Below, in pieces: positions 1,744-43,285 of a stretch of 64,000 nt of DNA. The translations under genes and the position numbers were made by a program. The notes below the pieces were generated by a model. It searched no databases and had not been told where the DNA came from. It was given only the letters and a program-made list of their open reading frames with translations. Numbering within the stretch: position 1 is the stretch's first letter; every line of letters starts with the position of its first letter. The stretch lies in NCBI GenBank assembly GCA_043800555.1, contig JAZDMX010000023.1, positions 9,101 through 73,100 on the forward strand. Reading direction: 5' to 3'. Source of the stretch: Candidatus Omnitrophota bacterium. Its GTDB lineage: Bacteria; Omnitrophota; Gorgyraeia; Gygaellales; Profunditerraquicolaceae.

Positions 1744-3600
1744 ATGCACAAAGCTATCCTTTTAGTTGCGCTTGCTGCGTTATTTGCCTGCGGCATCCGG
1801 ATTGAAGGTTTTGCGGAAGAGGGCCTGCCACAGGAAGAGCAGGGTATCGCGGCCTCCGGCCATTCAAACAGAATTTCCCTCGATGTCAAAGATATGGATA
1901 TTGTGGACGTATTAAAAATCCTTACAAGCCATTCGGGGATGAATATAGTCATCGGAAAAAATGTCGCCGCCCGGGTTACCCTTTTTCTTAAAGACGTCGA
2001 CATCCGGGATGCCTTTGAGATAATCCTTCTGGCCAATGACCTGGCTTACGATAAGCAGGATGGCATAATCAACATTATGTCTGGCAGAGACTACGAGATG
2101 ATTTACGGCACCCCTTTCCGGGACAAAAAGCAAGCTAGGATAATCAAGCTGGAATACGCCAAAGCAGCCGATATTGTGCGCGCGCTGAACCAGTTTAAAA
2201 CCAATTCCGGGCGCATAATCGCGGACGAAGGGACCAACACTATCGCCATAATCGATGTCCCTGAAGTGACTAAGAGCATGGAGGACTTTATCGCCAAAGC
2301 CGACGCTCCCCTGCAAACAAAAGTATTTGATTTGAATTATGCCCAAGCGGAGAAGCTTAACGCCAGCCTGCAGGAAATACTGACAAAAAATATCGGCAGA
2401 ATAAAAATTGACGAACGCACAAATAAAATGGTTGTAACCGATTACCCGCAAATAATCAATGAAATAAGCAAAATAATCAAAGCGTTTGACGAAAAGAATA
2501 TGCAAGTCTTAATCAACGCTCAAATAATCAACCTGACCCCTTCGGATCAATTCCAAATGGGGGTAAACTGGGACTACTGGATAAAGAAATATATCGATGT
2601 CAAGCTATCCCTGCCCGTAAATACCGCTAATGCCCTGTTTGTGGGAACGAACAAAACCGGCGACCCTAATCACCCGGGCCAATTCAAGGCAATTGTCGAT
2701 ATTTTACGCACTATCGGAGACGCAAAGGTTTTATCAAGCCCCAGGATCATCTCTTTAAACAACCAGGAAGCAAAAATCCACGTGGGCACCCGGGACGCTT
2801 ATATCACCTCGACAACGTCCCAAAGCGGCAGCGGCACCGCCGTAACTTCGCAAGAAGTTAACTTTGTCGACTGGGGCATACAATTATATGTTACTCCCAC
2901 TATAAATAAGGAAGGCTTCATTACAATGAAAATCAAGCCCGAATTAAGCGATGCTACCCGCACCGATATTAAATCAGAAGGGCAAATTACACAGGTGCCT
3001 ATCATAACTACTTCCGAATCCGAAAGCACCGTAACGGTCAAAGACGGTGTAACAATAATCATCGGCGGTTTAAGGAAGGACAAGAGGATAAAAACCGTAA
3101 AGCAGATCCCTGTTTTGGGAGACATACCGGGGCTGGGAATGCTCTTTAGGTCTACGGACGATAAAACCGAAATAAATGAACTGATAATACTGCTTACCCC
3201 GCATATAATTACGGGCGAAAAGTCTTATTCGGATGTCTCCGAGCTTGCCCCCAAAGACGGCGTAGTGGCAAAAATGGAAGGCGGGAACATAGTTTTTTCT
3301 AAAACTTCCCCTGCTGCCGACAATACCTCTGCTTATTACCGCTCTATAGTCGATAAAGTAAAGGCTACAGCGTTGCTTATCCGGCCGAAAGGAGAAAAAG
3401 CAAGAGGAGAGGTCAGGCTGAACTTCGTGCTCTACAAAGACGGCACCATTATTGACGGGCCGTATATAGAAAAAACGAATAACCCCGAATTAAATTTGAA
3501 AGCAATTGAAGCAGTAAGGCTGGCTGCTCCATTTCAACCATTACCTCTTAAAGAAGATAAGGATAGGAAAAATTTCAGCATATGTTTGTCTTATGAGTAA
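1744..3600 (+). CDS. Secretin (GspD/PilQ family) with a C-terminal TonB_C-like domain
   Basis: AAGGAGG is 8 nt upstream of the ATG at 1744, and the signal peptide is MHKAILLVALAALFAC. The secretin C-domain motif is VPVLGDIPGLGMLFRSTDDKTEINELIILLTPHII. The last ~130 aa (GEVRLNFVLYKDGTIIDGPYIEKTNNPELNLKAIEAVRLAAPFQPLP) match the TonB C-terminal fold pattern. Confidence 0.8.
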   Translation: MHKAILLVALAALFACGIRIEGFAEEGLPQEEQGIAASGHSNRISLDVKDMDIVDVLKILTSHSGMNIVIGKNVAARVTLFLKDVDIRDAFEIILLANDLAYDKQDGIINIMSGRDYEMIYGTPFRDKKQARIIKLEYAKAADIVRALNQFKTNSGRIIADEGTNTIAIIDVPEVTKSMEDFIAKADAPLQTKVFDLNYAQAEKLNASLQEILTKNIGRIKIDERTNKMVVTDYPQIINEISKIIKAFDEKNMQVLINAQIINLTPSDQFQMGVNWDYWIKKYIDVKLSLPVNTANALFVGTNKTGDPNHPGQFKAIVDILRTIGDAKVLSSPRIISLNNQEAKIHVGTRDAYITSTTSQSGSGTAVTSQEVNFVDWGIQLYVTPTINKEGFITMKIKPELSDATRTDIKSEGQITQVPIITTSESESTVTVKDGVTIIIGGLRKDKRIKTVKQIPVLGDIPGLGMLFRSTDDKTEINELIILLTPHIITGEKSYSDVSELAPKDGVVAKMEGGNIVFSKTSPAADNTSAYYRSIVDKVKATALLIRPKGEKARGEVRLNFVLYKDGTIIDGPYIEKTNNPELNLKAIEAVRLAAPFQPLPLKEDKDRKNFSICLSYE

Positions 3601-3602
3601 AG

Positions 3603-3689
3603 AAAAGGGGGACGTTTCTACTTTTCCGGCAATCAGTCTCGAGAAAAGTAGAAACGTCCCCTATTTTCTGGCAACGTCCCTATTTTTTG
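3603..3689. repeat. Palindromic hairpin repeat, copy 2, with an extra partial arm
   Basis: AAAGGGGGACGTTTCTACTTTTC (3604-3626), loop CGGCAATCAGTCTC, GAGAAAAGTAGAAACGTCCCC (3641-3661). A partial arm AACGTCCCTATTTTTT follows at 3673-3688. Confidence 0.85.
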
Positions 3690-4119: not shown

Positions 4120-5355
4120 ATGTTTAAAAGAGTATCCGGGACCAAAGATATCTTACCTGATGAAGCGATCCTATGGCAGCGCCTAGAAGAGATCAGCCGC
4201 GACACCTTCTCTTTATATAATTTCAAGGAAATCCGGACCCCCTTAATCGAAGAAGCGGCTTTATTCAACCGTTCCCTGGGGGAAACCGCTGAAATCGTCC
4301 AGAAACAGATGTTCCTCATCAACAATAAAGAGGAAACTTATGCCCTGCGGCCGGAAGGCACGGCTTCAATCGTGCGCGCCTATATCGAGAACAATCTCGA
4401 TAAAACAAGCGGGTTTGTCAAATTATTCTACACCGGCCCGATGTTCAGGCTGGAGCGGCCGCAGAAGGGGCGCTTAAGGCAGTTCCATCATATCGGCTGC
4501 GAGGCAATCGGCTCTTTCGACGCAAGGCTGGACGTTGAAATCATCGCCCTAGCCGATAACTTATTACGCAATTTTTCCATAGAAGGCTATAAAATAAAAT
4601 TGAACAGCCTCGGCTGCGCGCCCGACAAACAAAAGCTGGTAGAGGCCCTCAGGAAGGGCCTTAATGCCAAATCGGAAAAACTCTGCCCCGAATGCGTAAA
4701 CAGGCTTAAAAACAACCCTTTGCGGATCCTGGATTGCAAAAATGACGCCTGCAAAGAAACTGCCGCGGAATTAAATATTTCAGAAGGCTGCCTTTGCCCG
4801 GATTGTTCGGAGCATTTTAACAAAGTCAAAACCGGGCTGGACTTCTTGAACATAAAATATGAAATTGACCCGCGCCTTGTGCGGGGCCTGGATTATTACA
4901 CGGGGACAGTCTTTGAGATATCGCAAAAAAGCTTAGGCGCCCAGGACGCTATCGGAGCCGGAGGCAGGTATAATAATTTGACTCGGGAATTAGGCGGGCC
5001 GCAGGCCGGGGCTATGGGTTTTGCCTTTGGCGTAGAAAGGCTGCTGTTGGCCCAGGCAGAAACTGTCAAAATACAAAGCAAAAACCTGGTTTACCTGATA
5101 ACCCTGGGAGAGCCCGCAAAATTAGAAGGCTTCAGGATACTGGATGAATTACGCAAAAACGGGATCCCCTGCGATACCAATTTCGAGGACAAATCCTTAA
5201 AAGGGGCCATGCGCAAAGCAGATGATTTAAACGCGCGGCTGGTCCTGATCATCGGAGACAATGAAATCGAAAAAGGGGTCATTACCTTAAGGGATATGGG
5301 TTCCGGCAGGCAGGTTGAAGTAAAAACAAAAGAAATGCTAAAGGAAGTCAGATGA
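4120..5355 (+). CDS. hisS: Histidine--tRNA ligase
   Basis: Class II aaRS motifs and a HisRS-specific N-terminus (RVSGTKDILPDEA, LRPEGTASIVRAY, GGRYNNL). Confidence 0.9.
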   Translation: MFKRVSGTKDILPDEAILWQRLEEISRDTFSLYNFKEIRTPLIEEAALFNRSLGETAEIVQKQMFLINNKEETYALRPEGTASIVRAYIENNLDKTSGFVKLFYTGPMFRLERPQKGRLRQFHHIGCEAIGSFDARLDVEIIALADNLLRNFSIEGYKIKLNSLGCAPDKQKLVEALRKGLNAKSEKLCPECVNRLKNNPLRILDCKNDACKETAAELNISEGCLCPDCSEHFNKVKTGLDFLNIKYEIDPRLVRGLDYYTGTVFEISQKSLGAQDAIGAGGRYNNLTRELGGPQAGAMGFAFGVERLLLAQAETVKIQSKNLVYLITLGEPAKLEGFRILDELRKNGIPCDTNFEDKSLKGAMRKADDLNARLVLIIGDNEIEKGVITLRDMGSGRQVEVKTKEMLKEVR

Positions 5356-20776: not shown

Positions 20777-20830
20777 TTCCAAACCCGCATTGGAATCAGG
20801 TTCGGTTAAATTCCAATGCGGGTTTGGAAT
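20776..20830 (+). promoter_or_regulatory. 21-bp perfect inverted repeat (each arm itself hairpin-capable) between glyQS and ppdK
   Basis: ATTCCAAACCCGCATTGGAAT (20776-20796) and its exact reverse complement ATTCCAATGCGGGTTTGGAAT (20810-20830). The repeat starts at the glyQS stop codon. Confidence 0.6.
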
Positions 20831-25019: not shown

Positions 25020-25024
25020 ATTTT

Positions 25025-25085
25025 GCCCCTGTAGCTCATAAGGATACCTGCCTGCCGGCAGGCAGGGAGCAACAGTTTCCTAAAC
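25025..25085 (+). pseudogene. 5' portion of a disrupted tRNA-Arg(CCU)-like gene (acceptor 5' strand, D-arm with a 20-bp palindrome inserted, anticodon arm 5' strand and loop)
   Basis: GCCCCTG TA GCTC ATAAGGATA [CCTGCCTGCCGGCAGGCAGG] GAGC A ACAGT TTCCTAA AC. About 85% identical to the 5' half of the intact tRNA at 25340-25413. It breaks right after the anticodon loop, where the GIY-YIG ORF starts. Confidence 0.6.
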
Positions 25086-25087
25086 AC

Positions 25088-25378
25088 ATGTATTACGTTT
25101 ATGCCCTAAAATCAGTTAAGTACGATAGAATATATATTGGCATAACTAAAGATTTAAAAAATAGAGTTAAAGAGCATAATTCGGGGAAAACGAAATCTAC
25201 AAAATTTTATAAACCTTGGATATTGTTTTATTCAGAAATAGTTGATTCTCGTATAAACGCGAGAAAACGGGAAAAACAACTTAAATCGGGTTACGGTAAA
25301 GAGTTTTTAAAGAACAGGCGTAATATTAAACTCTTTAATGCGCCTGTAGCTCACACGGATAGAGCAAGAGTTTCCTAA
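25088..25378 (+). CDS. Stand-alone GIY-YIG (URI-domain) nuclease, COG2827-like
   Basis: YVYALKSVKYDRIYIGITKDLKNRVKEHNSGK...KPWILFYSE...ARKREKQLK. The 3' end of the ORF reads into the following tRNA gene. Confidence 0.8.
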   Translation: MYYVYALKSVKYDRIYIGITKDLKNRVKEHNSGKTKSTKFYKPWILFYSEIVDSRINARKREKQLKSGYGKEFLKNRRNIKLFNAPVAHTDRARVS

Positions 25379-25413
25379 ACTCTGGGTAGCAGGTTCGACT
25401 CCTGCCAGGCGCA
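25340..25413 (+). tRNA. tRNA-Arg (anticodon CCT)
   Basis: Manual cloverleaf: GCGCCTG / TA / GCTC-ACACGGATA-GAGC / A / AGAGT-TTCCTAA-ACTCT / GGGTA / GCAGG-TTCGACT-CCTGC / CAGGCGC / A. Anticodon CCT at 25374-25376. No encoded CCA. Confidence 0.75.
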
Positions 25414-25436
25414 TATGATTCTTAGTTATCGGTGTG

Positions 25437-25481
25437 GCAGGTTCCTGCCTGCCGGCAGGCAGGCGATTCCTGCCAGGGGCA
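25437..25481 (+). pseudogene. 3' portion of the disrupted tRNA-Arg-like gene (T-arm with the same 20-bp palindrome inserted, acceptor 3' strand)
   Basis: GCAGG TTC[CTGCCTGCCGGCAGGCAGG]CGATT CCTGC CAGGGGC A. CAGGGGC pairs with GCCCCTG at 25025-25031. No 3' anticodon-stem strand is present. Confidence 0.55.
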
Positions 25482-25509
25482 TATAATTCTTAATCCATGA
25501 GCGTTTTTC

Positions 25510-26169
25510 ATGTATAACTGCAATCTCCACGCGCATACCTTATTAAGCGACGGCCAGCTGCTTCCTTCGGAAGTGGCTGTGCGCTATCTTGATAAAGGAT
25601 ATAAAGTAATCGCGCTTACCGACCACGCCGATTACAGCAATATAAAATCAATCTGCCAGGCGGTAATTAAATTCTGCCGTATGTGGCCTGCGGATTCAAA
25701 AATCAAGGTCCTGCCGGGGATAGAATTAACGCACCTGCCTCCGGGGCAATTCAAGCCTTTGGCAGCTTACGCCAGAAAACAAGGCATAAAGATAATCCTA
25801 GCCCACGGGGAAACTCCGATTGAGCCCGTAGTCAAAGACACCAACAGGCTGGCGCTTTTGGCGGATATCGATATCCTCGCCCATCCGGGGCTGATTACGG
25901 ATGAGGATACCCTGCTGGCTAAAGAAAGAGGGGTATTCCTGGAGATTACCAGCCGCCAGGGGCACTCCGATACGAATGCACACGTAATCAACCAGGCAAG
26001 AAAACTGGGGGCCAAGTTAATCCTTGATCATGATGCCCACGCGCCGGAAGATATTATTTCTCCCGGGCAACTGGTTGAGATAGGGATAACGGCAGGCTTA
26101 TCTAAGGATGAAATAGATAAAATTGACGCAGATGTAAATGATTTTCTAAAGAAGAGGGGGGCCATATGA
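25510..26169 (+). CDS. PHP-domain (polymerase/histidinol phosphatase-like) metal-dependent phosphoesterase
   Basis: N-terminal CNLHAHTLLSDG and DHADYSN motifs, typical of the PHP domain. Confidence 0.7.
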   Translation: MYNCNLHAHTLLSDGQLLPSEVAVRYLDKGYKVIALTDHADYSNIKSICQAVIKFCRMWPADSKIKVLPGIELTHLPPGQFKPLAAYARKQGIKIILAHGETPIEPVVKDTNRLALLADIDILAHPGLITDEDTLLAKERGVFLEITSRQGHSDTNAHVINQARKLGAKLILDHDAHAPEDIISPGQLVEIGITAGLSKDEIDKIDADVNDFLKKRGAI

Positions 26170-26621
26170 ACAAAGGCGTATTAATCATAGCAACCGTATG
26201 TTTTTCATTAACGGGAATGCTTGGCTGCGCTTCGCTTTCCGATAAAAACGCATCCTCCCAAACCCTGCAAGCCCAGCAATCATCATTAAAATTCTCGGAT
26301 TTACCTATCCCGGCGGGATTTAGGATTTTAGAAAAAGATTCTTATTCCTTTGAAAGTTCCGGCATGCGCGTCGGGTTATTAAGATATAGAGGAAAGGCGA
26401 CGATTGACCAGGTAGTAAGTTTCTACAAAGAACAGATGCCGATGTATAACTGGGCCCTGTTGAACATCACGGAATACGGCGAATGCATAATGAACTTCGA
26501 GAGAGAACAAGAAAGCTGCATTATAAATATTATTCCTAACGGAAGCTCTTCTGTAATAAGCATAGCTATGGGCCCGAAATCCCAGGCTATATCTAAAAAG
26601 GCCAAGAAGCCGGTAAAATAA
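26166..26621 (+). CDS. Hypothetical lipoprotein
   Basis: Signal peptide and lipobox (LTGMLGCAS). I recognise no family. Confidence 0.4.
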   Translation: MNKGVLIIATVCFSLTGMLGCASLSDKNASSQTLQAQQSSLKFSDLPIPAGFRILEKDSYSFESSGMRVGLLRYRGKATIDQVVSFYKEQMPMYNWALLNITEYGECIMNFEREQESCIINIIPNGSSSVISIAMGPKSQAISKKAKKPVK

Positions 26622-26650
26622 ATACGGCTTTTAACAAGAATAAAGCGGCT

Positions 26651-27016
26651 ATGAATAGAACTATATTCCTAATGATACTCCTTGCGTTTATTCTTTATTT
26701 TCCATTTATTCCCCGGGCCCAAGCCGACTCAATGGATAAACTCAGGATTCAACAACAGCTTGACCAGTTTAAAAACCAGCTCCAAACCAATGCCCAAAAT
26801 ACCAACGCCCGGGCCCAAAACCTTATCCAAGAAAAAGAAATAGAAGCAACGCAATATCAGGAAAGACAAGAAGTAACTTCCGATGTCTTTGATAAATTCG
26901 CCAAAAAAAGCCAGCAATCGAGTTTCCAGCATATGGCCCGCATATACGGGATGCCTCTTTTGATAATGGCGGCTGTCGGCGTTATCCTATTGGTAATTTG
27001 GCACCAAAACGTATAG
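26651..27016 (+). CDS. Hypothetical Gln-rich secreted/membrane protein
   Basis: N-terminal signal, a Gln-rich coiled region and a C-terminal hydrophobic segment. Confidence 0.35.
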   Translation: MNRTIFLMILLAFILYFPFIPRAQADSMDKLRIQQQLDQFKNQLQTNAQNTNARAQNLIQEKEIEATQYQERQEVTSDVFDKFAKKSQQSSFQHMARIYGMPLLIMAAVGVILLVIWHQNV

Positions 27017-27084
27017 TAAAAAGGGGGACGTTTCTACTTTTATCGAGTCTGATTGCCGGAAAAATAGAAACGTCCCCCTTTTAC
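27017..27084. repeat. Palindromic hairpin repeat, copy 3 (copy 2 in inverse orientation, loop included)
   Basis: AAAAAGGGGGACGTTTCTACTTTT ... AAAATAGAAACGTCCCCCTTTT. The loop ATCGAGTCTGATTGCCGG is the reverse complement of the copy 2 loop. Confidence 0.85.
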
Positions 27085-27245
27085 TCTTATACGGTGATTT
27101 TTCAAAAAACACTTGACAAATAACAGGTTATATGTTAAAAAAGTACAAATGGTATTAACTCAAAAATATCGCCTAGGCATATAAATCATTCGCGCCTAGT
27201 TTATATAACGCAAACAGGGTATCATAAAAAAGGAGGAGAAAGAAA

Positions 27246-28580
27246 ATGAGTAAACGCTTAAGTTTGGTGCTTGCGCTTCTATTTACGATAGGCACAACAT
27301 TCGCCTACGCTGAAGTGCAAAATATCAAGGTATCGGGCGATATCTTGGCAAGCGGAGTAACAAGAAGCCATTTTGGCCTCATTGCCGCAACATCAGGGGA
27401 TAAGAGCGCGTTGAAGCAAAGTTTTATTATGTCTCAAATCAGGCTTCGTGTTGACGCCGACCTTACCGACAATGTCATGGCAACCGTAAGGCTTATCAAC
27501 GAAAGAATCTGGAACGGCCAAAACGATACTACCTCTAGCGGAAATTCGAATATTGACCTTGACTTAGCCTACGTTACCTTAAAGGAATTCTTATACTCTC
27601 CTTTAAGCTTCACAGTCGGCCGTCAGGAAATCCGTTTTGGTAATGGATTGGTCATGGGCAACGCAAAGGCGGACATCAGCGGGACATCAACCATTCCTAC
27701 CGATTTAAGCGAAAGAAAGGCCTTTGACGCCATACGCGCTACTCTTAATTATGATCCTTTAGTGATTGATTTGGTCTATGCTAAGGTAAAGCAAGCTACT
27801 TCCGTGGATAGGAATACCATTGGCTTAGCCGGCGTTAATGCTACTTACGCGGTAAACAAAGATACCAATGTGTCTGCTTACTATTTCTTAAAAAGGGACA
27901 ACTATAAAGGCACTTCCCTGGGACGCGGCGAGCCCGATCAATTAAACACTATCGGCGGCTTGGTAACCAGCACCCCGATCGAGAACTTAACCGTATCCGG
28001 AGAGGCTGCTTATCAGTTCGGAAGAAACGATTCTTCCAACACAACCCAGAAAAAACATGATGCCTGGGCGTTTCAGGCTATGGCGGATTATATCTTTGCC
28101 AAGGTCAAAACAACTCCTAAAATCGGAGCTTCGTGGACCTATTTATCCGGGGGCAAGGCCAGCGGCACTGACGCTACCAGGAATCAAGGCTGGGACGCAA
28201 TGTTCTACGATCAGAAATTGAACAATATCGTCTACGCAATCCTGCCTTTTACGAATATGAATGCTTTCAACTTAAAGGCCAGTTGCAAACCGTTAGATGA
28301 CGTTACGGTGTCTGCTGTATATGGTTATTATAATGTAGCCAAGCAGAGCACCGCGGCTGTCATCAGCCCATTCTACTATGACGGGTCTGCTCAATATTTA
28401 AACACCAACTATACAGGCAAAACACATCTCGGCGACGCAATTGATTTAACCGCAACCTATGACTATACCGAAGATGTGCAGTTAGGTTTAACCTATGGAT
28501 GGTTTAAACCGGGCAATGCCCTGGCAACAAACGAGAAAGACGCCAATCAGTTAATTGGTTCTTTAAAGGTAATATTCTAA
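27246..28580 (+). CDS. Outer-membrane beta-barrel protein (porin-like)
   Basis: Signal peptide (LFTIGTTFAYA), alternating amphipathic beta-strand pattern and a C-terminal Phe (SLKVIF). Confidence 0.55.
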   Translation: MSKRLSLVLALLFTIGTTFAYAEVQNIKVSGDILASGVTRSHFGLIAATSGDKSALKQSFIMSQIRLRVDADLTDNVMATVRLINERIWNGQNDTTSSGNSNIDLDLAYVTLKEFLYSPLSFTVGRQEIRFGNGLVMGNAKADISGTSTIPTDLSERKAFDAIRATLNYDPLVIDLVYAKVKQATSVDRNTIGLAGVNATYAVNKDTNVSAYYFLKRDNYKGTSLGRGEPDQLNTIGGLVTSTPIENLTVSGEAAYQFGRNDSSNTTQKKHDAWAFQAMADYIFAKVKTTPKIGASWTYLSGGKASGTDATRNQGWDAMFYDQKLNNIVYAILPFTNMNAFNLKASCKPLDDVTVSAVYGYYNVAKQSTAAVISPFYYDGSAQYLNTNYTGKTHLGDAIDLTATYDYTEDVQLGLTYGWFKPGNALATNEKDANQLIGSLKVIF

Positions 28581-28601
28581 GGCTGTTTATGTAAATAAAG
28601 G

Positions 28602-28637
28602 AGCCCTTGGGGGCCAACACCTCCGAGGGCTTTTTTA
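28602..28637 (+). terminator. Rho-independent terminator after the OMP gene
   Basis: Imperfect stem GAGCCCTTGG...CCGAGGGCT (8/9) followed by TTTTTTA. Confidence 0.6.
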
Positions 28638-28835
28638 TTACTCTGATAGCTTTAGGCCAATAGCCTGTAAGTCAATGCCAAGCTTAGAACAAAAATATAT
28701 CAAACAATCTGAATTTGATGTATATTATAAAAGGTGCGAAGAACTTTCAGAATGCTCCATAGTTTTCGTAATTATTTAAAACTTTAAACCATAGGCTATA
28801 GGCTATCGACTATAGACCTGTATATTTTTTATCCT

Positions 28836-30395
28836 ATGTTACACTTGGCCTTCATCTTCCATATGCACCAACCCTATTACAAAGACCTGCTTACCGGCCA
28901 GGCGGACCTTCCCTGGGTCAGGCTTCACGGGGTAAAAGACTACCTCGATATGGTGCAGATACTGGAGAAATTCCCGAAAATCCATCAAACTTTCAATATT
29001 GTCCCGTCCTTATTTGAACAAATCGAGAATTACGCCGACGGCTCCATAAAAGAAAGGTTCCTTGAGCTTTCATATAAAGAAGCTGACCACCTCTCCGGAA
29101 ACGATAAAAATTTCATCCTGAACAATTTCTTCTCCATCAATAAAGACAGGGTCATCTCCAACTTTCCCCGCTACTATGAATTGTATTTCAAGAAACAGAG
29201 GAAAGAAGAATTCAGCACCCAGGATTACCTTGACCTTCAGCTATGGTTTAATTTAGCCTGGATCGACCCGTCATTGCGGGCCAAATCCCCGGAACTAAAA
29301 GCAGTTATAGCCAAGGGAAGGTTTTACAGCCAAGAGGATAAGCGGCTTGTCCTGGACAAACAGCTAAGCATCCTGAAAGAAATACTCCCGGCATACAAAA
29401 GGTTTTGCGGCTCCGTTCAGGGCGAGCTAAGCGTAACGCCTTATTATCACCCTATACTGCCGCTATTGTGCAGTTCAAATAGCGCCAAGGAGGCAAACAG
29501 GCAAAGCCTTTTGCCCAACAAGGAATTCCGGTACCCTCAAGACGCCAAGGCCCAAATTGACGGCGCTGTAAATTTCTACCGGGAGAGATTCGGGTCTATC
29601 CCCAACGGCATGTGGCCGTCGGAAGAATCGGTAAGCGAGAGCATCCTTCCCTTTATAATCGATTCGGGCATAAAATGGATAGTCGCGGATGAAGCCATAC
29701 TCTTTAAATCCCTGAAATCAAAGGAGAGGGCCACTAAATTGCTCTACCAGCCGCATTCATTGAAAAGAAAGCAGGGGAGCCTCAATATTGTCTTCCGCGA
29801 CCGCAATCTTTCGGATTTAATCGGATTTGTTTATCATTCCTGGAAGGCCCGGAATGCGGTGGAAGATTTTATGCGGCATTTGGGCAATATAAATAAAACC
29901 TTTGAGAACCAGGACATCCTGGTAACCATAGCCATGGACGGAGAAAACGCCTGGGAATATTACGCCAATGACGGCCATGACTTCCTGGAGCTGCTTTATC
30001 AAAGCCTTAGCGAATCCGATTTCATAAAAGTTACAACGGTATCGCAATACCTGGAGAAACATGCGGTTAGATCCGAAATAAGGCATTTGAGCGCCGGTTC
30101 CTGGATATACGGTAATTTTAACAAATGGATGGGTAATTTCTATAAGGCCAAGGCCTGGGATTGGCTGCTTTGCGCCCGGGCCCAGCTGGATAAAGCAATG
30201 CCCGGCTTATCAGAGCAGGACAAACAGCTTGCCTTAAAACAAATTTATGTTTTGGAGGGCAGCGATTGGTTCTGGTGGTACGGCGAAGATCCCGATGGCT
30301 CCTTTGACAGGTTATTCCGCCTGCATCTACGCAACTTCTACTCAATAATAAAAGTTCCGGCCCCGGATTATTTGTTAAACCCTCTAAGTGCTTGA
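28836..30395 (+). CDS. Glycoside hydrolase family 57 enzyme (glycogen branching/alpha-glucan processing type)
   Basis: GH57 N-terminal signature LAFIFHMHQPYY...LPWVRLHGVKDY. Confidence 0.85.
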   Translation: MLHLAFIFHMHQPYYKDLLTGQADLPWVRLHGVKDYLDMVQILEKFPKIHQTFNIVPSLFEQIENYADGSIKERFLELSYKEADHLSGNDKNFILNNFFSINKDRVISNFPRYYELYFKKQRKEEFSTQDYLDLQLWFNLAWIDPSLRAKSPELKAVIAKGRFYSQEDKRLVLDKQLSILKEILPAYKRFCGSVQGELSVTPYYHPILPLLCSSNSAKEANRQSLLPNKEFRYPQDAKAQIDGAVNFYRERFGSIPNGMWPSEESVSESILPFIIDSGIKWIVADEAILFKSLKSKERATKLLYQPHSLKRKQGSLNIVFRDRNLSDLIGFVYHSWKARNAVEDFMRHLGNINKTFENQDILVTIAMDGENAWEYYANDGHDFLELLYQSLSESDFIKVTTVSQYLEKHAVRSEIRHLSAGSWIYGNFNKWMGNFYKAKAWDWLLCARAQLDKAMPGLSEQDKQLALKQIYVLEGSDWFWWYGEDPDGSFDRLFRLHLRNFYSIIKVPAPDYLLNPLSA

Positions 30396-30433
30396 CATCT
30401 AATGAGTTTTATGTTATAAATGTTCAAGTTGAA

Positions 30434-31000
30434 ATGGATAAAAAAGACATATACGAACACTTAGCAAAGATCTACCTTGATGCTTCTTCGAAGAAGAAAA
30501 AAAGAAATAAGGCTTATCCAAAACTTTTCAAGAATCTTTTTATCGTAAGCATATTCCTAATGGCCGGCCTATCTACAACTTTATTATCTTCGGCGTTTAA
30601 GAAGCAAAATTTGAATTCCGAGACCGCTTTAGTCCTTCAAAACGGGCACGCGAAGATTAATTTTAATTTCAACCCCGCGAAAAAAGAATCCTATACCCTT
30701 GAGCTTAACCGCCTGAACCTGGCCCGCTTTAAAATGCTGGCTTTCTCCGTAAGAAGTATGGGCCCTAAGGACAAAATAACCCTGCGGGTTGAATTTACAA
30801 ACTCCTTCAAAGAAAAATCCGAGATTTATTTAAGGGGCCTGCCTTCCAACTGGCAGGATTTTAGGATCAATCTATCCGAATTCAAGAATATAAGCGACTG
30901 GTCGGAAATAGACAGCCTTTCTTTTTGCGTGGAAGAATGGAACGTATCCGGGAGTAAGGGGCTGATTTTCATCGATAATGTCCGGCTCCTTAAGACCTGA
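30434..31000 (+). CDS. Hypothetical bitopic membrane protein with beta-rich C-terminal domain (possible carbohydrate-binding)
   Basis: ATG at 30434 (the track start at 30392 is a TTG). One TM (LFIVSIFLMAGL). It sits between GH57 and the ParA-CBM48 gene. Confidence 0.4.
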   Translation: MDKKDIYEHLAKIYLDASSKKKKRNKAYPKLFKNLFIVSIFLMAGLSTTLLSSAFKKQNLNSETALVLQNGHAKINFNFNPAKKESYTLELNRLNLARFKMLAFSVRSMGPKDKITLRVEFTNSFKEKSEIYLRGLPSNWQDFRINLSEFKNISDWSEIDSLSFCVEEWNVSGSKGLIFIDNVRLLKT

Positions 31001-31061
31001 AACGCCTGGGCCAGGCATGCATAAGCTATCCTGAGTTGACGAAACAAAAGGAGGAAATATA

Positions 31062-32195
31062 ATGCGCATAATAGCCATCACTAACCAAAAGGGGGGTTGC
31101 GGCAAAACGACAACCTCGGTTAATTTAGCCGCTTCTTTGGCTACTAACGGTAAAAAAGTGCTGCTAATAGATATTGACCCGCAAGCGCACGCGACACTTG
31201 GATTAAATATCAAATCCTCGCTTAGTATTTATAATGTTTTGTCAAAGACCGCGCATCAAAAGGCGAAAATCGAAGATATCATCCAAAACATAAGCCCGGA
31301 TTTCGACATAGCGCCGTCCAGCATCATTTTGAGCACCCTTGAACAGGAGTTGGCCGGCGAAATAGGCAGGGAATCCCGGCTCTGGGACACCTTAAACAAT
31401 TTTAAAGGCCTTTACGATTATATACTGATAGATTGCCCTCCAAATTTAGGCATTCTGACCATAAACGCTATCCGGGCAGCCAATGAAATAATTATCCCGG
31501 TAGAAGCCAGCAGGTTCTCCCTGGAAGGCATGGGCCAGCTCATAAGCATAGTAAGTTTGGTCCGTGACCGCTTAAACCACGCTGTAAGCGTCAAAATACT
31601 GGTTACTAATTTCGATTCCCGCCTGGCGCATTCTTTCAAAATGCTTTTGAAGATCAAATCCGATTTTAATAATAAACTATTCTCCACCATTATCCACGTG
31701 AACGTAAGGTTAAAAGAAGCCCAGAACCAGGGAACCCACATATTCAATTTCGACAAGTATTCCCGCGGGGCAAAAGACTATTACAGCCTCTCAAGGGAAA
31801 TCATCACTCAAGAAGAACCCGGGGCTAATGCTGCCATCAAGGCGGAGAGCGCGCCCAAAGCGGCGGTTAAGCCGATCGTAAGCCTGGAAAAGAAAATGAA
31901 CGAGATACTTAAAGCAGAACTTCCGAAACTTACCGAAGTAATGTTCTCGGTTGTTGCGCCCGAAGCTAAAGAGGTTTACGTTACCGGAGAATTCAATAAC
32001 TGGAAACTGGAAGCGTCCGGCCGCATGCTCAAGAATAACGGGACCTGGAGCAAAAAACTAAACCTGACCAGCGGGAAATACCGCTACCGCTTTGTTATTG
32101 ACGGAAATTGGACGGAAGACTCATCCAACCCCTTAAAAGAAAAGAACCCCTACGGCTCGATTGATTCCCTGATCGAAATCGGAAAGAAACAATAA
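31062..32195 (+). CDS. ParA/MinD-family P-loop ATPase fused to a C-terminal CBM48/AMPK-beta-type glycogen-binding domain
   Basis: Deviant Walker A NQKGGCGKTTTSVNLA followed by a ParA fold. C-terminus EVYVTGEFNNWKLE...GTWSKKLNLTSGKYRYRFVIDGNWTEDSSNP matches the AMPK-beta GBD/CBM48 pattern. Confidence 0.8.
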   Translation: MRIIAITNQKGGCGKTTTSVNLAASLATNGKKVLLIDIDPQAHATLGLNIKSSLSIYNVLSKTAHQKAKIEDIIQNISPDFDIAPSSIILSTLEQELAGEIGRESRLWDTLNNFKGLYDYILIDCPPNLGILTINAIRAANEIIIPVEASRFSLEGMGQLISIVSLVRDRLNHAVSVKILVTNFDSRLAHSFKMLLKIKSDFNNKLFSTIIHVNVRLKEAQNQGTHIFNFDKYSRGAKDYYSLSREIITQEEPGANAAIKAESAPKAAVKPIVSLEKKMNEILKAELPKLTEVMFSVVAPEAKEVYVTGEFNNWKLEASGRMLKNNGTWSKKLNLTSGKYRYRFVIDGNWTEDSSNPLKEKNPYGSIDSLIEIGKKQ

Positions 32196-32206
32196 GGGAG
32201 GTGCGT

Positions 32207-32614
32207 ATGATTAAGAAAAAACCGGCAAAAAAGAAAATAATAAAGAAGGCAACAAAAAAGGCGGGCGTCAAGAAGCCTGCCAGGAAAATCGCCCCCAAGA
32301 AGAAAAAAACAGTTGGCAAGGTTAAAAAGGCGGGCGTCAAGATTAAAAAAACCAAAGAAAATTTAATTGGCGCCATAACGCATTATTTCCCGCACGTGCA
32401 GGCAGCAGTAATAAAATTAGAGTCCCCCTTATCAGCCGGGGAAACGATTAAGGTCAAGGGCCACACAACGGATTTTACGCAAAATATTACCTCTATGCAA
32501 ATTGACCATGTCAGCGTAAATTCAGCTAAAACCGGGCAAGAAATCGGCCTGCTGGTCACTTCCCGGGTAAGGCAAGGAGACCTAGTTTATAAAGTTAAAC
32601 AAAAAGGAGGCTAA
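32207..32614 (+). CDS. Lysine-rich (histone H1-like tail) protein with C-terminal small beta-barrel domain; candidate ParA partner
   Basis: GGGAGG is 5 nt upstream of the ATG at 32207. N-terminal KKKPAKKKIIKKATKKAGVKKPARKIAPKKKK... The ~90-aa C-terminus weakly resembles translation-factor domain 2. Confidence 0.6.
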   Translation: MIKKKPAKKKIIKKATKKAGVKKPARKIAPKKKKTVGKVKKAGVKIKKTKENLIGAITHYFPHVQAAVIKLESPLSAGETIKVKGHTTDFTQNITSMQIDHVSVNSAKTGQEIGLLVTSRVRQGDLVYKVKQKGG

Positions 32615-32615
32615 A

Positions 32616-32795
32616 GTGAGGCTTTCGGAAGTAGAAAAAAGAGCAAAGGCTTTAGGGATCAAAGATACCTGGAGGCTTTCTAAGAAAGAACTGATCAAGA
32701 CGATCCAGCAGGTTGAAGGGAATAACCAATGTTTCGGGACCATTCGCGCCTGCAGCCAATTAATCTGCTGCTGGAGGGGAGACTGCATAAGATGA
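32616..32795 (+). CDS. Small Rho_N/SAP-like domain protein with Cys-rich tail (GTG start, 59 aa)
   Basis: VRLSEVEKRAKALGIKDTWRLSKKELIKTIQQ resembles a Rho-N-terminal-like helix pair. The stop overlaps the next ATG as ATGA. It is absent from the ORF track (<60 aa). Confidence 0.35.
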   Translation: MRLSEVEKRAKALGIKDTWRLSKKELIKTIQQVEGNNQCFGTIRACSQLICCWRGDCIR

Positions 32796-32977
32796 AATAC
32801 CGCTGCCAAGTCTGTAACCGCGATATCGATGAATTTGCCAGCCTTGCCCATATTAAAGCAGAGGAATATTTATTAGAACTAATCAGGCGCGACCATCCTG
32901 AATGGCACGAGAACAAGAAAACCTGCCACAAATGCGTCGAATATTACCGCAAATTAGTAAAAGAAAACGAGGTCTGA
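32792..32977 (+). CDS. Small zinc-ribbon protein (CxxC...CxxC, 61 aa)
   Basis: MKYRCQVCNRD...KKTCHKCVEYY. The track ORF from 32729 is an upstream extension. Confidence 0.35.
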   Translation: MKYRCQVCNRDIDEFASLAHIKAEEYLLELIRRDHPEWHENKKTCHKCVEYYRKLVKENEV

Positions 32978-33074
32978 TTTAAGGGGGGCGCATAGGAGCG
33001 CCCCCTAAAAATATAACATTTTTGAGTACATACCCATAATAAATACGGCGTTAAAACCCGGTAAGTTCAAGTAA

Positions 33075-33413
33075 ATGCAACCTCGAGGAAGGCCTAAAAA
33101 ATACAGGATAGTGCACCTTGACCCTAAGATAAGCCAATTCAGCCCCCGGGGCAAACCCGGCAGGCCGAATGAAATAGACCTTAGCCTAGACCAGTTTGAA
33201 GCCATAAGGCTGGCTGATTATATGGGATTACCTCAAAAAGAAGCAGCCAAGTCAATGCGCATATCCCAACAGACCTTTAGCCGGATACTAAAAAAGGCGC
33301 GGAGAGGCTTAGCTAACGCTTTAGTCAAAGGCAACGCCATAAAGATACAAGGCGGAAACTACATAATCACTTCCCGCGAAGATCATGCTCCGACAAAGGG
33401 CCAAAACAGCTAA
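33075..33413 (+). CDS. DUF134/UPF0251-family predicted DNA-binding protein
   Basis: The conserved ...LDQFEAIRLADYMGLPQKEAAKSMRISQQTFSRILKKARRGLANAL... pattern of this family (sigma-70 region-4-like HTH). Confidence 0.6.
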   Translation: MQPRGRPKKYRIVHLDPKISQFSPRGKPGRPNEIDLSLDQFEAIRLADYMGLPQKEAAKSMRISQQTFSRILKKARRGLANALVKGNAIKIQGGNYIITSREDHAPTKGQNS

Positions 33414-33687
33414 AAGGCCCGCAATAAAACCCGCCAAAAAACCTTCATTTTACCGCTTTTTACCTACTTTTACCTTTGTGCTCAACTTCCTATAATATAT
33501 CTTATGTTAACTTGAGCATATTGCCTAAGTCAACTTAACCTCTTGTTAAATAAGGAGTTACGTTACCCTGGTATTTACCTGTGGAAAAGCAATTTTTTAG
33601 TTACTTAAACTTACCGCTTTCTTTTAAGGTTGACATTTACGGATGGATTCCTGAAGGAATTTACCGGGATTTTTTGCCTCTAATCGC

Positions 33688-34811
33688 CTATTTCATTCTC
33701 CGGGTTAAAATTACCTGGGCGGGAAAAATCGAATTATCTCCCAAGCGGCCATTGATCTTATCCAGCGCCTTAACCAAAGCCTCTCTGCGCCTTTGTTCGG
33801 GTAATAAAGGCAGGTAACTTTGCCACTCTAAACTGCTGGCAGTTACTCCCAGGGCCCTGATTTTTGGCCTTTTCCGGGCCTCCTGGGCCATTAATTTAAG
33901 GGCTCTCAAGTATATTTCATAGCTATCATTGGTAGCCATTGAAAAGGTTTTTTGGGCCAGAAAATCGCCTTTATCCGGCATATTCAGCCAGATATGGGTT
34001 GTCCGGGAGGCAAGCTCGTTCTGCCTTAAACGCTCGCCAACCATTTCAGATAATACCCTGATCCAGGCGTTGATAAACCGGGGGTTTTCCAAAGCTTTCG
34101 GCAAGGTGTAGGAATGGCTTATTGACTTAGGCCGTTCGCCGCTTTCCCGGTTTCCTTAAACTTACCGGAATTTTCATTAACCCCTGCTGCGCCAAAGAAT
34201 CCCGGTAAGTTCAGGTATAAATCCCAGCAGCTTCTTAACCCCTGGCGCATTAAAATCTGCCCGGTTTTGCCTGCCATGCCACAAGCCTTGGTAAGCGGAG
34301 TTAAAGCCAGGACATCCTTAAGGTTGGAATCGTCTATCCGGGTAACTCCGTCAGGCTTATTGACCTTAGAAGCCAGCTTGGCAAGAAGTTGGTTTTCGGC
34401 TATGCCAACTGAAGCGGTAATGTTAAAGTTTGCATATATCTGCTCCCGGATCTGTTTAGCTAATTTAAGCGGTTGGGGGTAATCCCGGATATCCAGCTGG
34501 AATTCATCAATTGAAACGTAATTCAGCGGGAACCCGAAACCTTTAAGCAGCTCAAGGATTTGCCCGGAAGTCCAGATATACTTGGCCTGGCTTGCCGGCA
34601 CAAACTCTAAATTTGGGCAGATGTTAAAGGCGTCTTTTGAGAGCATCCCGGAATGTATTCCCAGGCGCTTAGCTTCATAGCTGGCGGCGCAAACCACGGT
34701 GCGCGTTTTATTGGCGCGCGAGCCCACAATCAAAGGCTTGCCTTTAAGGCGCGGGTTTATGGCCTGCTCAATTGAAGCAAAAAACGCGTCCATATCGATG
34801 TGCAGGATCAT
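33688..34811 (-). pseudogene. dinB: DNA polymerase IV (dinB), interrupted by frame lesions
   Basis: N-terminal 2/3 (MILHIDMDAFFASIE...SIDE...) in one frame and little-finger domain (ERPKSISHSYTL...) in another. In-frame stops and frame switches cluster at 34156-34215. Confidence 0.6.
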
Positions 34812-35829: not shown

Positions 35830-35860
35830 AGATATACCACACAAATGTGTGGTTTGTCAA
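35830..35860 (-). promoter_or_regulatory. lexA promoter with 16-bp perfect palindromic operator CCACACAAATGTGTGG (candidate SOS box)
   Basis: On the minus strand: TTGACA - AACCACACATTTGTGTGG - TATATC, then ATG. The palindrome fills the -35/-10 spacer. Confidence 0.55.
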
Positions 35861-35871
35861 GAAAGAAAATG

Positions 35872-35980
35872 GAGGGGCGGGGAAATGGGGACGTTTCTAC
35901 TTTTCCGGCGTTAAGGGGAAATGGGGACGTTTCTACTTTTCCGGCGTTAGTCTCGAGAAAAGTAGAAACGTCCCCATTTC
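35872..35980. repeat. Palindromic hairpin repeat, copy 4, left arm tandemly duplicated
   Basis: GGGGAAATGGGGACGTTTCTACTTTTCCGGCGTTA(A)G x2, then TCTCGAGAAAAGTAGAAACGTCCCCATTTC. It ends 4 nt before the hflX stop. Track ORF 35845..36105 is just its translation. Confidence 0.85.
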
Positions 35981-35984
35981 ATAA

Positions 35985-37247
35985 TCAAATTTGCGTTATT
36001 TCGCGGTTATTTAACAACCTCAAGGAAAGGATTTTCGGCAGGTTAACTTTGACCCTTATGCCTCTTTGCAAGTATTCGATTTGTTCGACTTTGCCCTGCC
36101 GGTAAAATAAATCCACAATGTCCATCCGGCCAAAAGGGACCAAAACCTCGGCACGGACCATCCGGGAATTAAAACATTCTTCTATCTTCTCAAATAAACC
36201 GCTGATATTTGTTTTGAGCTTAGCCGAAATTGCCACAGGGTTAGAAAAATCCCTTTTTAATTTCTCAAGCCACATTTTATCATCTAACAGGTCCACCTTG
36301 TTTAAAACAGTTATCGCCGGCTTATCCCTTATCCCCAGTTCTTCTAAAAGCTCAAACACGGCTTTGCCGTGTTCATATACCTGGGGGTGGCTTGCGTCTA
36401 AAACATGGATTAAAAGATCAGCCTGCACTACTTCTTCAAGGGTCGCCTTGAAGGCTTCGATAAGATGATGCGGAAGCTGGCGCAGGAAACCTACCGTGTC
36501 GGAAATAACCACATTCTCGCCATTAGGCAATTGCAGGTTTTTGGATAAAGGATCAAGGGTAGTGAATAAGGCCCCTGATACGGTTTGGCCGGCATTAGTC
36601 AAAGAATTCAAAAGCGTGGATTTACCGGCGCTGGTATAACCGACTAAAGCAACCAGGGGAATGGCATTATCTTTACGCCTCTTACGCATGACTACGCGCC
36701 GCAGCATTAAGCCTTTTAAATCCTCCTTCAGGCGGTCGATCCTTTTACGTATGGCCCTTCTATCCACCTCCAGCTTTTGTTCTCCCGGGCCGCGCGTTCC
36801 AATCCCGCCGCCTAAGCGCGAAAGGATAATCCCCTTGCCGATTAACCGGGGCAGGATATACTGCAGCTGGGCAAGCTCAACCTGTATTTTGCCTTCCGGG
36901 CTCTTTGCCCGGCGGGCGAATATATCCAGGATAAGCTGGGAGCGGTCAATAGTCTTTCTCCCTATTATCTCTTCCAGGTTCCGCTGCTGGGTCCCGGAAA
37001 GGTCGCGGCCAAAGATTACCGTATCGATATTTTCTTCTTCGGCAACCAAGCTTATCTCTTCAGCCTTGCCCTTGCCGATAAGAAGATTGGGCGTAGGCTG
37101 CTGGCAAACACAACTAATGCTATCTACGGCCTCTACCCCGCAAGCTGCAACCAGCTCTTCCAGTTCCTGCGCAAAATCATCAACCCTTAATTTCTCTATC
37201 CCGCGCTTAAACTGAATGGTAACCAACAAAGCTCTTTCCATATTCAC
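35985..37247 (-). CDS. hflX: GTPase HflX
   Basis: HflX N-domain, then G motifs (GYTSAGKSTLLN, DTVGF, NKVD). GTG at 37247 or ATG at 37241, preceded by AAGGTG. Confidence 0.85.
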   Translation of the reverse strand: MNMERALLVTIQFKRGIEKLRVDDFAQELEELVAACGVEAVDSISCVCQQPTPNLLIGKGKAEEISLVAEEENIDTVIFGRDLSGTQQRNLEEIIGRKTIDRSQLILDIFARRAKSPEGKIQVELAQLQYILPRLIGKGIILSRLGGGIGTRGPGEQKLEVDRRAIRKRIDRLKEDLKGLMLRRVVMRKRRKDNAIPLVALVGYTSAGKSTLLNSLTNAGQTVSGALFTTLDPLSKNLQLPNGENVVISDTVGFLRQLPHHLIEAFKATLEEVVQADLLIHVLDASHPQVYEHGKAVFELLEELGIRDKPAITVLNKVDLLDDKMWLEKLKRDFSNPVAISAKLKTNISGLFEKIEECFNSRMVRAEVLVPFGRMDIVDLFYRQGKVEQIEYLQRGIRVKVNLPKILSLRLLNNREITQI

Positions 37248-37251: not shown

Positions 37252-37332
37252 CAGGAAATGGGGACGTTTCTACTTTTCTAGAGTTATCTTAAAGAAAAGT
37301 AGAAACGTCCCCGTTTCCTGCGTCCCCTTTTC
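37252..37332. repeat. Palindromic hairpin repeat, copy 5, abutting the hflX RBS
   Basis: GGAAATGGGGACGTTTCTACTTTTC ... GAAAAGTAGAAACGTCCCCGTTTCC, plus partial CGTCCCCTTTT. It begins 5–11 nt upstream of the hflX start. Confidence 0.85.
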
Positions 37333-37345
37333 TCCCCCATTTTCT

Positions 37346-41692: not shown

Positions 41693-41769
41693 ATTCTTAA
41701 GTTTCTAATTCTTTAACTAACTCATTTATTCGTAGTTATTTAGCTTCTTCAATATCCCCAAAATCATCA

Positions 41770-41945
41770 CGCGGTACTTACACCAACGGTCAGCCGAAAG
41801 TCCGGATGAAAACTTTTTTCTTATCTTCTTTCATATTTATGCCTTATGGTATCGTGCAAAAGTGTCTAAAACTGTATAGTAGAAGCTGTTCTATACATCT
41901 TTTGTCTGCTTCAAATATTATCTCTAGGAATCTTTCAAATTGCGT
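41770..41945. repeat. Internally deleted partial copy of the element at 43120-43640 (segments R1, TGTCTAAAACTGT box, R2)
   Basis: 41800-41835 ~ 43170-43205 (35/36 nt). 41864-41900 ~ 43240-43278. 41902-41945 ~ 43577-43620. Confidence 0.7.
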
Positions 41946-42023
41946 TATTTCTTTACAAAATCTTGCCTCGAAACAAAAACCCAGGCACTTTAAAACGCCT
42001 GGGTTAATCGATCCTGATGCCTT

Positions 42024-42353: not shown

Positions 42354-42415
42354 AAACTGATCAATCTGCTTTTATTGAAATGTTAGCTTTTGAAAATATT
42401 GGCTCTCGAAATGAA

Positions 42416-43205: not shown

Positions 43206-43285
43206 TCATATCAGTAGATTATAAATTCTTGCCTATGTGTCTAAAACTGTCAAAGTAGATGAATGTATACGACTATCACGCGTTT

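Follow-up and report, generated by a model that had tools for sequence, protein, structure and literature searches.

The sequence analyzed here, a 64-kb stretch of a contig from an uncultivated Omnitrophota bacterium (referred to as the window), contains six intergenic copies of a hairpin of ∼60 bases. HflX homologs, one of them an NCBI protein of 100% identity encoded on a 79.7-kb contig, assign the window to a Candidatus Omnitrophota MAG. Both strands of the window were scanned for the 23-nt arm AAAGGGGGACGTTTCTACTTTTC with up to three mismatches, which yielded 12 matches, compared to 0 in 100 shuffled sequences. The 12 arm matches pair up into exactly six hairpins, located at all six of the sites where an initial annotation of the DNA had proposed an intergenic repeat family. 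Five window copies and two metagenomic relatives were aligned (alignment A3) to build a covariance model (R1), which, run with filters off, recovered the same six sites only, at E values of 1e-10 to 1e-19. The next matches of the model in the window, at 56248-56288 and 20778-20829 (E values of 0.03 and 0.18), were rejected as family members, as each is an unrelated hairpin of unique sequence, the former an ordinary terminator-like AAAAAACCCCGCAC...GTGCGGGGTTTTT. The arms of the family, given in short form as GAAAAGGGGGACGTTTCTACTTTTC, lie 13 to 17 nt apart and form stems of 23 to 34 bp. In total, the 64 kb contain six head-to-head arm dimers and one extra solo arm, and the family fills 6/30 of the intergenic spacers of at least 40 nt. 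The predicted RNA folds of the copies range from -35 to -60 kcal/mol (z-scores relative to shuffled sequences, -5.6 to -12.7). At the gathering threshold, no Rfam family matched any copy and the window gave a tRNA-Arg only; a known structured RNA, raised earlier as a competing explanation, accounts for none of the six.

Copy 1 (1-63, + orientation) is truncated by the start of the window. Its arms occupy 2-20 and 36-54 and are followed by T8, the model match covers 1-55 (E value of 2e-10), a decayed partial arm, CGTCTCCTTTTTTT, lies at 62-75, and a TTGACA hexamer is present at 80, 16 nt downstream. Copy 2 (3601-3669, +) is located immediately past the TAA stop codon (3598-3600) of a PilQ-type secretin gene, with arms at 3604-3626 and 3643-3665, the loop CGGCAATCAGTCTCGA, a model score of 82.5 bits, and a fold of -41.6 kcal/mol; a partial duplicate of the outer arm, GGCAACGTCCCTATTTTTT, adjoins it at 3670-3689 (+; compare ACGTCCCCTATTTTCT at 3656-3669). 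Copy 3 (27015-27085, -), which overlaps the TAG stop codon (27014-27016) of a 121-aa ORF, is the copy 2 element reversed and scores 80 bits on the - strand. The two had been described as sharing a loop in opposite orientation, and their 92% complementarity over 65 nt, loop included, identifies them as one element in two orientations. Copy 4 (35915-35983, +; 88.5 bits) lies between the hflX stop codon (35985-35987, - strand) and the lexA promoter, with TTGACA at 35855-35860 (- strand). Beside it, at 35866-35913 (+), are a decayed partial arm, AAAATGGAGGGGCG, and a solo extra arm in direct orientation (35883-35905) with its spacer; positions 35879-35913 are 100% identical to 35915-35949, so that the left arm of copy 4, with its spacer, is present twice as a direct 35-nt repeat. 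Copy 5 (37252-37320, +; 87.9 bits) lies between miaA and hflX, with the hflX ribosome-binding site directly after it and two decayed partial arms (37321-37345, +; AGAAAATGGGGGAG and AAAAGGGGACGC in gene direction) filling the gap to the miaA stop codon. Copies 4 and 5 both carry GGAAATGGGGACG, as expected for the subfamily to which they had been assigned. Copy 6 (57120-57201, -) begins 3 nt past the stop codon of a metallo-beta-lactamase-fold gene, with TTGACA at 57109-57114 (- strand) and a fold of -59.7 kcal/mol; its arms are perfect, as annotated, with a corrected length of 34 rather than 33 nt, and their outer 9 nt (AATTCTCTG/CAGAGAATT) are specific to this copy. The decayed partial outer arms that adjoin copies 1, 2, 4, and 5 are CGTCCCCnTTTTC-like.

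The copies neighbor housekeeping genes that are functionally unrelated to one another, encoding a PilQ-type secretin and HisS, a small ORF and an alginate-export porin, LexA, HflX, and MiaA, and an MscS-like protein and a metallo-beta-lactamase-fold protein. Their annotated position at gene ends was borne out, since four of the five copies for which the upstream gene is visible begin 0 to 4 nt past its stop codon. The fifth, copy 5, lies 25 nt from the stop, and arm remnants occupy the gap. A same-strand TTGACA hexamer is present 5 to 38 nt downstream of 5/6 copies, compared to a background frequency of 1.1% of all positions and ∼5.8% of intergenic positions, and the copies are the sole hairpin in their spacers. 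With a stop codon just before and TTGACA just after, the copies thus occupy inter-operon spacers, extending from a gene end to the next promoter, with the exception of copy 5 inside the miaA-hflX operon.

The window has further features of note. In the lexA promoter region (35838-35860, - strand), TTGACA-N18-TATATC, the palindrome ACCACACATTTGTGTGGT between the promoter hexamers is a candidate LexA operator (SOS box). Downstream of lexA, a translesion polymerase gene of the IMS/DinB family (33688-34811, -) is present as two adjacent ORFs, one (230 aa) containing the IMS domain and the other (138 aa) the IMS_C domain, and the split could represent a frameshift, a pseudogene, or an assembly error. 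Gene direction switches from + (up to 33413) to - (from 33688) across a 274-nt spacer (33414-33687), and the GC skew changes sign at ∼26 to 34 kb; the window may span the replication terminus (∼26000-34000). At 25024-25482, a tRNA-Arg(CCU)-like gene is interrupted by an insert with a GIY-YIG nuclease ORF (25088-25378, PF01541) and an intact tRNA-Arg(CCU) (25339-25414). Within the split copy, the 20-nt palindrome CCTGCCTGCCGGCAGGCAGG occurs twice, in the D-loop (25047-25066) and again in the T-loop (25444-25463), ARAGORN calls tRNA-Arg(cct) once the three inserts are removed in silico, and Rfam detected no group I intron at this gene. A low-GC island (41730-47550; 36 to 42% GC) encodes a nucleotidyltransferase and an HTH protein and contains direct repeats of 50 to 90 nt (at 41730, 43105, 44051, and 47500) in spacers upstream of minus-strand genes; it may be a defense or toxin-antitoxin-like island.

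Among the window copies, identity is 97.9% in the arm cores and 51.6% in the loops. Eighteen core base pairs are invariant, two-sided pair changes are confined to the outer flank pairs, and the pair adjoining the G-run is G-C, U-A, G-U, or U-G. Conserved arms with compensatory changes in the outer pairs only are what recognition of the arm sequence by a protein would produce, and, judged from these alignments, the sequence of the arm cores is itself constrained, not their pairing alone. The loops are homologous (CCGGCnnTnAGTCTCGAG-like), giving every element an orientation, + in copies 1, 2, 4, and 5 but - in copies 3 and 6, that is independent of the direction of transcription. The A-run and T-run had initially been taken for flanks outside the arm, a view that we revise: both belong to the inverted arms and are kept in the copies that flank transposase genes in other phyla. 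As the two runs lie within the arms in every phylum, the terminator shape is a property of the element and not of its insertion sites.

The family extends beyond the window, as the initial annotation had anticipated. A metagenome scan matched seven loci, two of which, L002 and L004, each carry a real hairpin; the other five have one exact arm with no inverted partner and are probable chance matches. The 96 single 14-mer matches in viral contigs, none with a paired arm, are also consistent with chance. L002 derives from a close relative, in which LexA and an adjacent 102-aa ORF are 84% and 76% identical to those of the window. A copy is present downstream of the 102-aa ORF in L002 and none is found there in the window; conversely, window copy 4 is present upstream of lexA, where L002 has none. 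L004 is a contig of 65% GC with an AT-rich copy between unrelated genes. These differences in presence and absence were scored against relatives only ∼80% identical in protein, a divergence at which base-by-base reconstruction of the empty sites is impossible. The exact 19-mer arm core is absent from 185,579 species-representative genomes, so no cognate transposase was identified for the window family among them. Two Omnitrophota relatives have hairpins with a GGGGAC...GTCCCC foot and other inner stems (L144:3648-3726 and L002:1264-1295; GGGGACACTTTCC...GGAAAGTGTCCCC and AGGGGACGGTTCTCT/AGAGAACCGTCCCCT). At L150:2959-2978, a lone window-like arm, AAAGGGACCGTTTCTATTTTTG, is located directly past a stop codon; its significance is uncertain.

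The miaA-hflX junction could be compared among several relatives. In the relatives L008 and L011, miaA and hflX overlap (AGGAGATTATGGAAAGAGCT...TAG). Both the window and L010 carry two copies of the overlap segment, one forming the 3′ end of miaA and one the 5′ end of hflX, and a hairpin element separates them. The L010 element is of a different subtype, GGAAAATGGGGTCAGACCCC...GGGGTCTGACCCCATTTTCC, and the bases past the miaA stop codon are alike in the two genomes, the first decayed arm beside copy 5 (AGAAAATGGGGGAG) resembling AGGAAAATGGGGTCAG at the same place in L010. MiaA, too, shows its highest similarity between the window and L010 (70.6%, versus 62 to 65% otherwise). The junction is consistent with a single old insertion, after which elements turned over or became nested; such a history would also account for the decayed partial arms beside several copies. 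Because the architecture is common to the window and L010, copy 5 is perhaps old and not recently mobile. The L010 sequence GGGGTCTGAC equals the start of the Tn3 inverted repeat. Tn3-family ends were rejected as an identity for the arms, which are too short for this, lack 5-bp target duplications, and are associated with Y1 transposase genes.

The initial annotation had suggested looking for an associated transposase, and the expectation held in other phyla but not within the window. No Y1 transposase was detected in the 64 kb (hmmsearch at E ≤ 1; Pfam on candidate ORFs), and no DDE transposase was found among the candidate ORFs. The 420-aa ORF between copies 4 and 5, considered as a transposase such as TnpB, is HflX, and the ORFs of the low-GC island (40-48 kb) are not transposases. 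No Omnitrophota-labeled RAYT was present among the best 120 protein matches. On Nitrospirota, Xanthomonadales, and Planctomycetota contigs, arms near-identical to those of the window (GGGGACATTCTACTTTTT, GGGGACATTCCTATTTTTC) bracket IS200-like Y1 genes. The RAYT homolog loci were selected by protein homology alone, and some of the retrieved homologs are named “REP element-mobilizing transposase RayT” by JGI. In the Nitrospirota locus L229, GAAAAGGGGACATTCCTATTTTTC and its exact complement lie on either side of the Y1 gene (100% complementary to each other; 16/19 to the window core), and the arms AAAAGGGGACATTCTACTTTTTC / GAAAAGTAGAATGTCCCCTTTTC flank the Y1 gene of a Logan assembly (L234). The Xanthomonadales loci L231/L232 carry complete hairpins, GGGGACATTCTACTTTTTGGCCC...GGGCCAAAAAGTAGAATGTCCCC, that the window-derived model detects with an E value of 2e-6, and related arms lie by the Y1 genes of a Thermoguttaceae locus (L236; GAAAAGGGGACATTCTACTTT) and a gammaproteobacterial one (L235; GGGACATTCCTGATT...AATCAGGAATGTCCCC). 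In total, an arm (≤4 edits of 19) lies 1 to 39 nt from the PF01797 gene at 5/6 independent loci, compared to ∼1.2 such arms per 100 kb in background loci, and the genes bracketed by homologous arms are all PF01797 Y1 transposases. Homologs of the RAYT/TIRYT clade are mostly found on contigs of about 1 to 2 kb, as would be expected of genes whose flanking repeats interrupt assembly from short reads; copy 1, too, is found at the very start of the window.

A shorter palindrome with the same type of neighbor is far more widespread. Relative L008 contains short palindromes of the form AAAAATGGGGACAGTCCCC-N7-GGGGACAGTCCCCATTTTT, and the doublet GGGGACAGTCCCC-N5-9-GGGGACAGTCCCC was found in >120 stretches from many phyla (L109-L228), compared to ∼1e-3 by chance. 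The hosts include Planctomycetota (among them Kuenenia), Actinomycetes, Coriobacteriales, Omnitrophota, Kiritimatiellae, Aminicenantes, Halomonas, Pseudoduganella, and others, and the spacers and flanks of the doublets are lineage-specific. The ORFs of all doublet loci were clustered to find recurrent neighbors. One recurrent family by the GGGGAC[AT]GTCCCC units is again PF01797 (IS200-like Y1), directly flanked by them in three phyla: in a Planctomycetota MAG (L160), the gene lies between three units and a pair of inverted ones, and short-form units also directly flank the gene in L176, from a Halomonas isolate, and in L185, from an Actinomycetes MAG. The RAYT homologs described above were retrieved as homologs of these proteins. 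The short-form units are a sister family of the window hairpins; the GGGGACAGTCCCC motif was not found in the searchable literature. In L008 (Omnitrophota MAG GCA_030650425.1, JAUSED010000009.1), three short-form palindromes lie at 4303-4873 inside a radical-SAM (UPF0004/MiaB-like) gene whose frame remains open. They add 12 to 19 aa each (e.g., KMGTVPKRRGQSPFF) relative to the uninterrupted orthologs in L011 and in the window (39189-40331, -) and are in-frame insertions resembling those of Rickettsia palindromic elements (RPEs).

RPEs, reportedly described by Ogata and colleagues in 2000, are 100 to 150 bp long. The likeness to RPEs resides in the in-frame short-form GGGGACAGTCCCC doublets of L008, whereas 0/6 window copies are intragenic. 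RPEs are, moreover, CGTC-tagged (Di Nocera et al., PMC3733652). Elements of the IS200/IS605 group share with the window family a transposase superfamily (PF01797, HUH/Y1) and hairpin DNA as the recognized substrate. Their ends, however, carry different subterminal hairpins that are not mutual inverted repeats, and they are multicopy together with their gene, whereas the window arms are perfect inverted repeats and the copies are abundant without the gene. CRISPR arrays, DNA-uptake sequences, and operators were excluded by spacing, arm length, and gene context.

REP/REPIN-RAYT systems are closer (Nunvar et al. 2010, PMC2817692; Bertels and Rainey 2011, PMC3116915; Bertels et al. 2017, PMC5581495). 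A REPIN consists of two inverted arms and a spacer, replicating as one hairpin that is mobilized in trans by a Y1 transposase (PMC3116915, PMC5581495), and its architecture of two inverted arms with a short spacer is present in all six window copies. As in the window, these systems comprise many short extragenic palindromes at the 3′ ends of genes with a two-inverted-arm hairpin as the unit; their IS200-like Y1 transposase is usually single copy, its gene flanked by the same repeats, and the best-characterized REPIN-associated RAYT groups are those of Gammaproteobacteria. Classical REPs differ in being self-palindromic units of 20 to 40 nt with an unpaired 5′ GTAG (or CGTC) tag, whereas the window arms are not self-complementary. 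Because GTAG and CGTC both lie within the paired stem (GAAAAGTAGAAACGTCCCC), the window copies fall outside the classical REP definition.

The closest match in the literature is the TIRtron, a RAYT-like gene (TIRYT transposase) flanked by long TIRs (Di Nocera, De Gregorio, and Rocco 2013, BMC Genomics 14:522, PMC3733652). TIRtrons and the related TIR repeats share with the window family long inverted repeats beginning with GGGG(W)(S), an arrangement as head-to-head dimers (hairpins) or clusters, a location mostly downstream of genes, and the lack of target duplications, and the window arms are nearly the same in sequence as those by the Y1 genes of L229, L231, L234, and L236. Unlike in a TIRtron, the cognate gene of the window family is absent from the 64-kb window. 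The motif GGGGWSAS, which only “some” TIRs have (PMC3733652), is matched at 6/8 positions by the window arm (GGGGACGT), at 7/8 by the gene-flanking GGGGACAT, and at 8/8 by GGGGACAG (L008 type) and GGGGTCAG (L010). The same study describes “moderately abundant families of TIRs” in dimers or clusters, reports REPs inside genes as well, and notes that TIRtrons and TIR families often do not coexist; Omnitrophota are not among its phyla with TIRtrons (PMC3733652). Our literature search found no paper on such repeats in Omnitrophota. The TIRtron/TIR-repeat class is a sister of the REP/REPIN-RAYT systems.

The preference of the initial annotation for a dispersed REP/MITE-like family over independent terminators is upheld by the homologous loops, by the presence/absence differences among relatives, and by the near-identical arms that bracket IS200-like Y1 genes elsewhere. 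We consider it probable that the six hairpins are nonautonomous copies of a TIRtron-type mobile element, spread by a RAYT/TIRYT Y1 transposase. A full element of this type would comprise a RAYT-like IS200-family Y1 (HUH) transposase gene between inverted arms of ∼24 nt, of the form GAAAAGGGGAC(R)TT(T)CTAYTTTTC. On single-stranded DNA, the arms would fold into a hairpin, and a TIRYT encoded elsewhere in the genome, now or formerly, would recognize it, cut it, and rejoin it at new sites without generating target duplications. Copies would survive only where they are tolerated, i.e., in the short stretches that separate a stop codon from the promoter that follows. The combination of A-run, G-rich stem foot, and T-run suggests that the element probably doubles as a transcript-end hairpin, serving as a terminator or 3′ stabilizer. 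Both mobilization in this genome and any function at the RNA level are inferred. Several points speak against the TIRtron reading: no Y1 transposase is present within the 64-kb window, the representative genomes yielded no cognate transposase and the best protein matches no Omnitrophota-labeled RAYT, the window arm matches GGGGWSAS at only 6/8 positions, the presence/absence differences come from relatives only ∼80% identical in protein, copy 5 may be old, and conserved arms with diverged loops could instead mirror a selected host function.

With respect to that function, the initial suggestion that the hairpins act as terminators or RNA stabilizers fits the positions of the copies and is plausible, with differences between copies. 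The U-tract after the stem is 4 to 8 nt long in copies 1, 2, 3, and 6, which, if transcribed, might act as terminators or 3′-end protectors. In copies 4 and 5 it is 3 nt long (CCCCAUUUCC). Such a role appears unlikely for these two on account of the three U residues and, for copy 5, its place within the miaA-hflX operon, where transcription would presumably read through; termination at copy 4 is doubtful as predicted from its three U residues, although this copy lies at an operon end. Rho-independent (bidirectional) terminators have in common with the window hairpins an A-run, a G/C-rich stem foot, a T-run, a stop-to-promoter location, and a very stable predicted hairpin. Intrinsic terminators, however, have GC-rich stems of 5 to 14 bp and loops of 3 to 8 nt followed by a U-tract, compared to 23 to 34 bp and 13 to 17 nt in the window copies, and an intrinsic-terminator consensus scan of the window did not call the copies. 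The shared sequence and transposase association of the window hairpins also set them apart from terminators and indicate a common origin by copying.

The terminator-like features allow explanations in which the host, and not a transposase, maintains the hairpins. One of these, the main alternative, which we nonetheless regard as unlikely, accepts a TIRYT-type origin and supposes that the transposase has been lost, leaving immobile copies selected as inter-operon terminators or protectors of mRNA 3′ ends. Loops 52% identical beside arms 98% identical suggest old copies under purifying selection, copy 5 seems older than the split from L010, and TIRtrons and TIR families often occur apart (Di Nocera et al., PMC3733652). 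The setting of the copies agrees as well, with no transposase within 64 kb, four of five copies 0 to 4 nt past a stop codon, 5/6 just upstream of TTGACA, and no second hairpin in those spacers. The absence of a transposase rests on 64 kb of the genome, however, and several copies look recent or unselected: the 34-nt arms of copy 6 match perfectly, copies 2 and 3 reach 92% identity with the loop counted in, copy 4 is accompanied by an exact 35-nt duplication, and copies 4 and 5, with their poor U-tracts, are not obviously selected as terminators. That the hairpins are host-evolved intrinsic terminators, never mobile and with stems made identical by gene conversion or convergent selection, is highly improbable. 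Their A-run, GC-rich foot, and T-run, their very stable folds, and their stop-to-promoter position would fit, but the loops are homologous, copies 2 and 3 are one 65-nt sequence in opposite orientations, and the arms also bracket transposase genes in other phyla. The genome has ordinary terminators of unique sequence too (e.g., 56248-56288), against which stems of 23 to 34 bp and loops of 13 to 17 nt, undetected by the consensus scan, are atypical, and copy 5 lies within an operon.

Two further explanations concern the kind of protein that reads the arms. A classical MITE, i.e., a deletion derivative of a DDE-transposase insertion sequence mobilized through its terminal inverted repeats, would be small and intergenic with a very short interior, as are these elements with their 23-nt terminal inverted repeats. 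Direct target-site duplications, however, are present in 0/6 copies, whose left flank is rich in A and right flank in T, the two being complementary to each other; this lack excludes a DDE-type MITE. No DDE transposase was found in the window, and the homologous arms bracket PF01797 Y1 genes throughout, so that we rate this origin as slightly less credible again than that of host terminators. Least probable of all, in our assessment, is a set of operators or nucleoid sites bound by a host protein and forming a regulon. Conservation of the arm sequence beyond mere pairing and the proximity of 5/6 copies to promoters could be read in this way, but TTGACA lies at no fixed distance (5 to 38 nt), the adjoining genes have unrelated housekeeping functions, half-sites of 19 to 24 nt far exceed those of operators, and the orientation relative to transcription is mixed.

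The TIRtron/REPIN class itself is known (PMC3733652), and the window family is its extension to Omnitrophota. A bolder proposal, which we consider rather unlikely, is that all GGGGAC-footed hairpins, both the long-arm form and the short GGGGAC[AT]GTCCCC form, belong to one superfamily that has moved horizontally with a single TIRYT clade through at least eight phyla, with arms nearly unchanged and in-frame insertion into essential genes, and that here has become the standard bidirectional terminator module between operons. If this were so, the Omnitrophota lineage would use a mobile, ready-made bidirectional terminator. The arms and the Y1 clade offer a concrete DNA-protein recognition pair for in vitro work, as the arms of one Y1-transposase clade are alike nearly base for base in Omnitrophota, Nitrospirota, Planctomycetota, and Gammaproteobacteria. 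Hairpins of this kind break metagenomic assemblies, and they are open to misannotation as terminators or to the splitting of operons, as miaA-hflX illustrates. REPIN/RAYT and TIRtron/TIRYT repeats now reach Omnitrophota, uncultivated bacteria with very small cells and compact genomes, and if the hairpins do terminate transcription, they would be a case of selfish DNA providing a host function.
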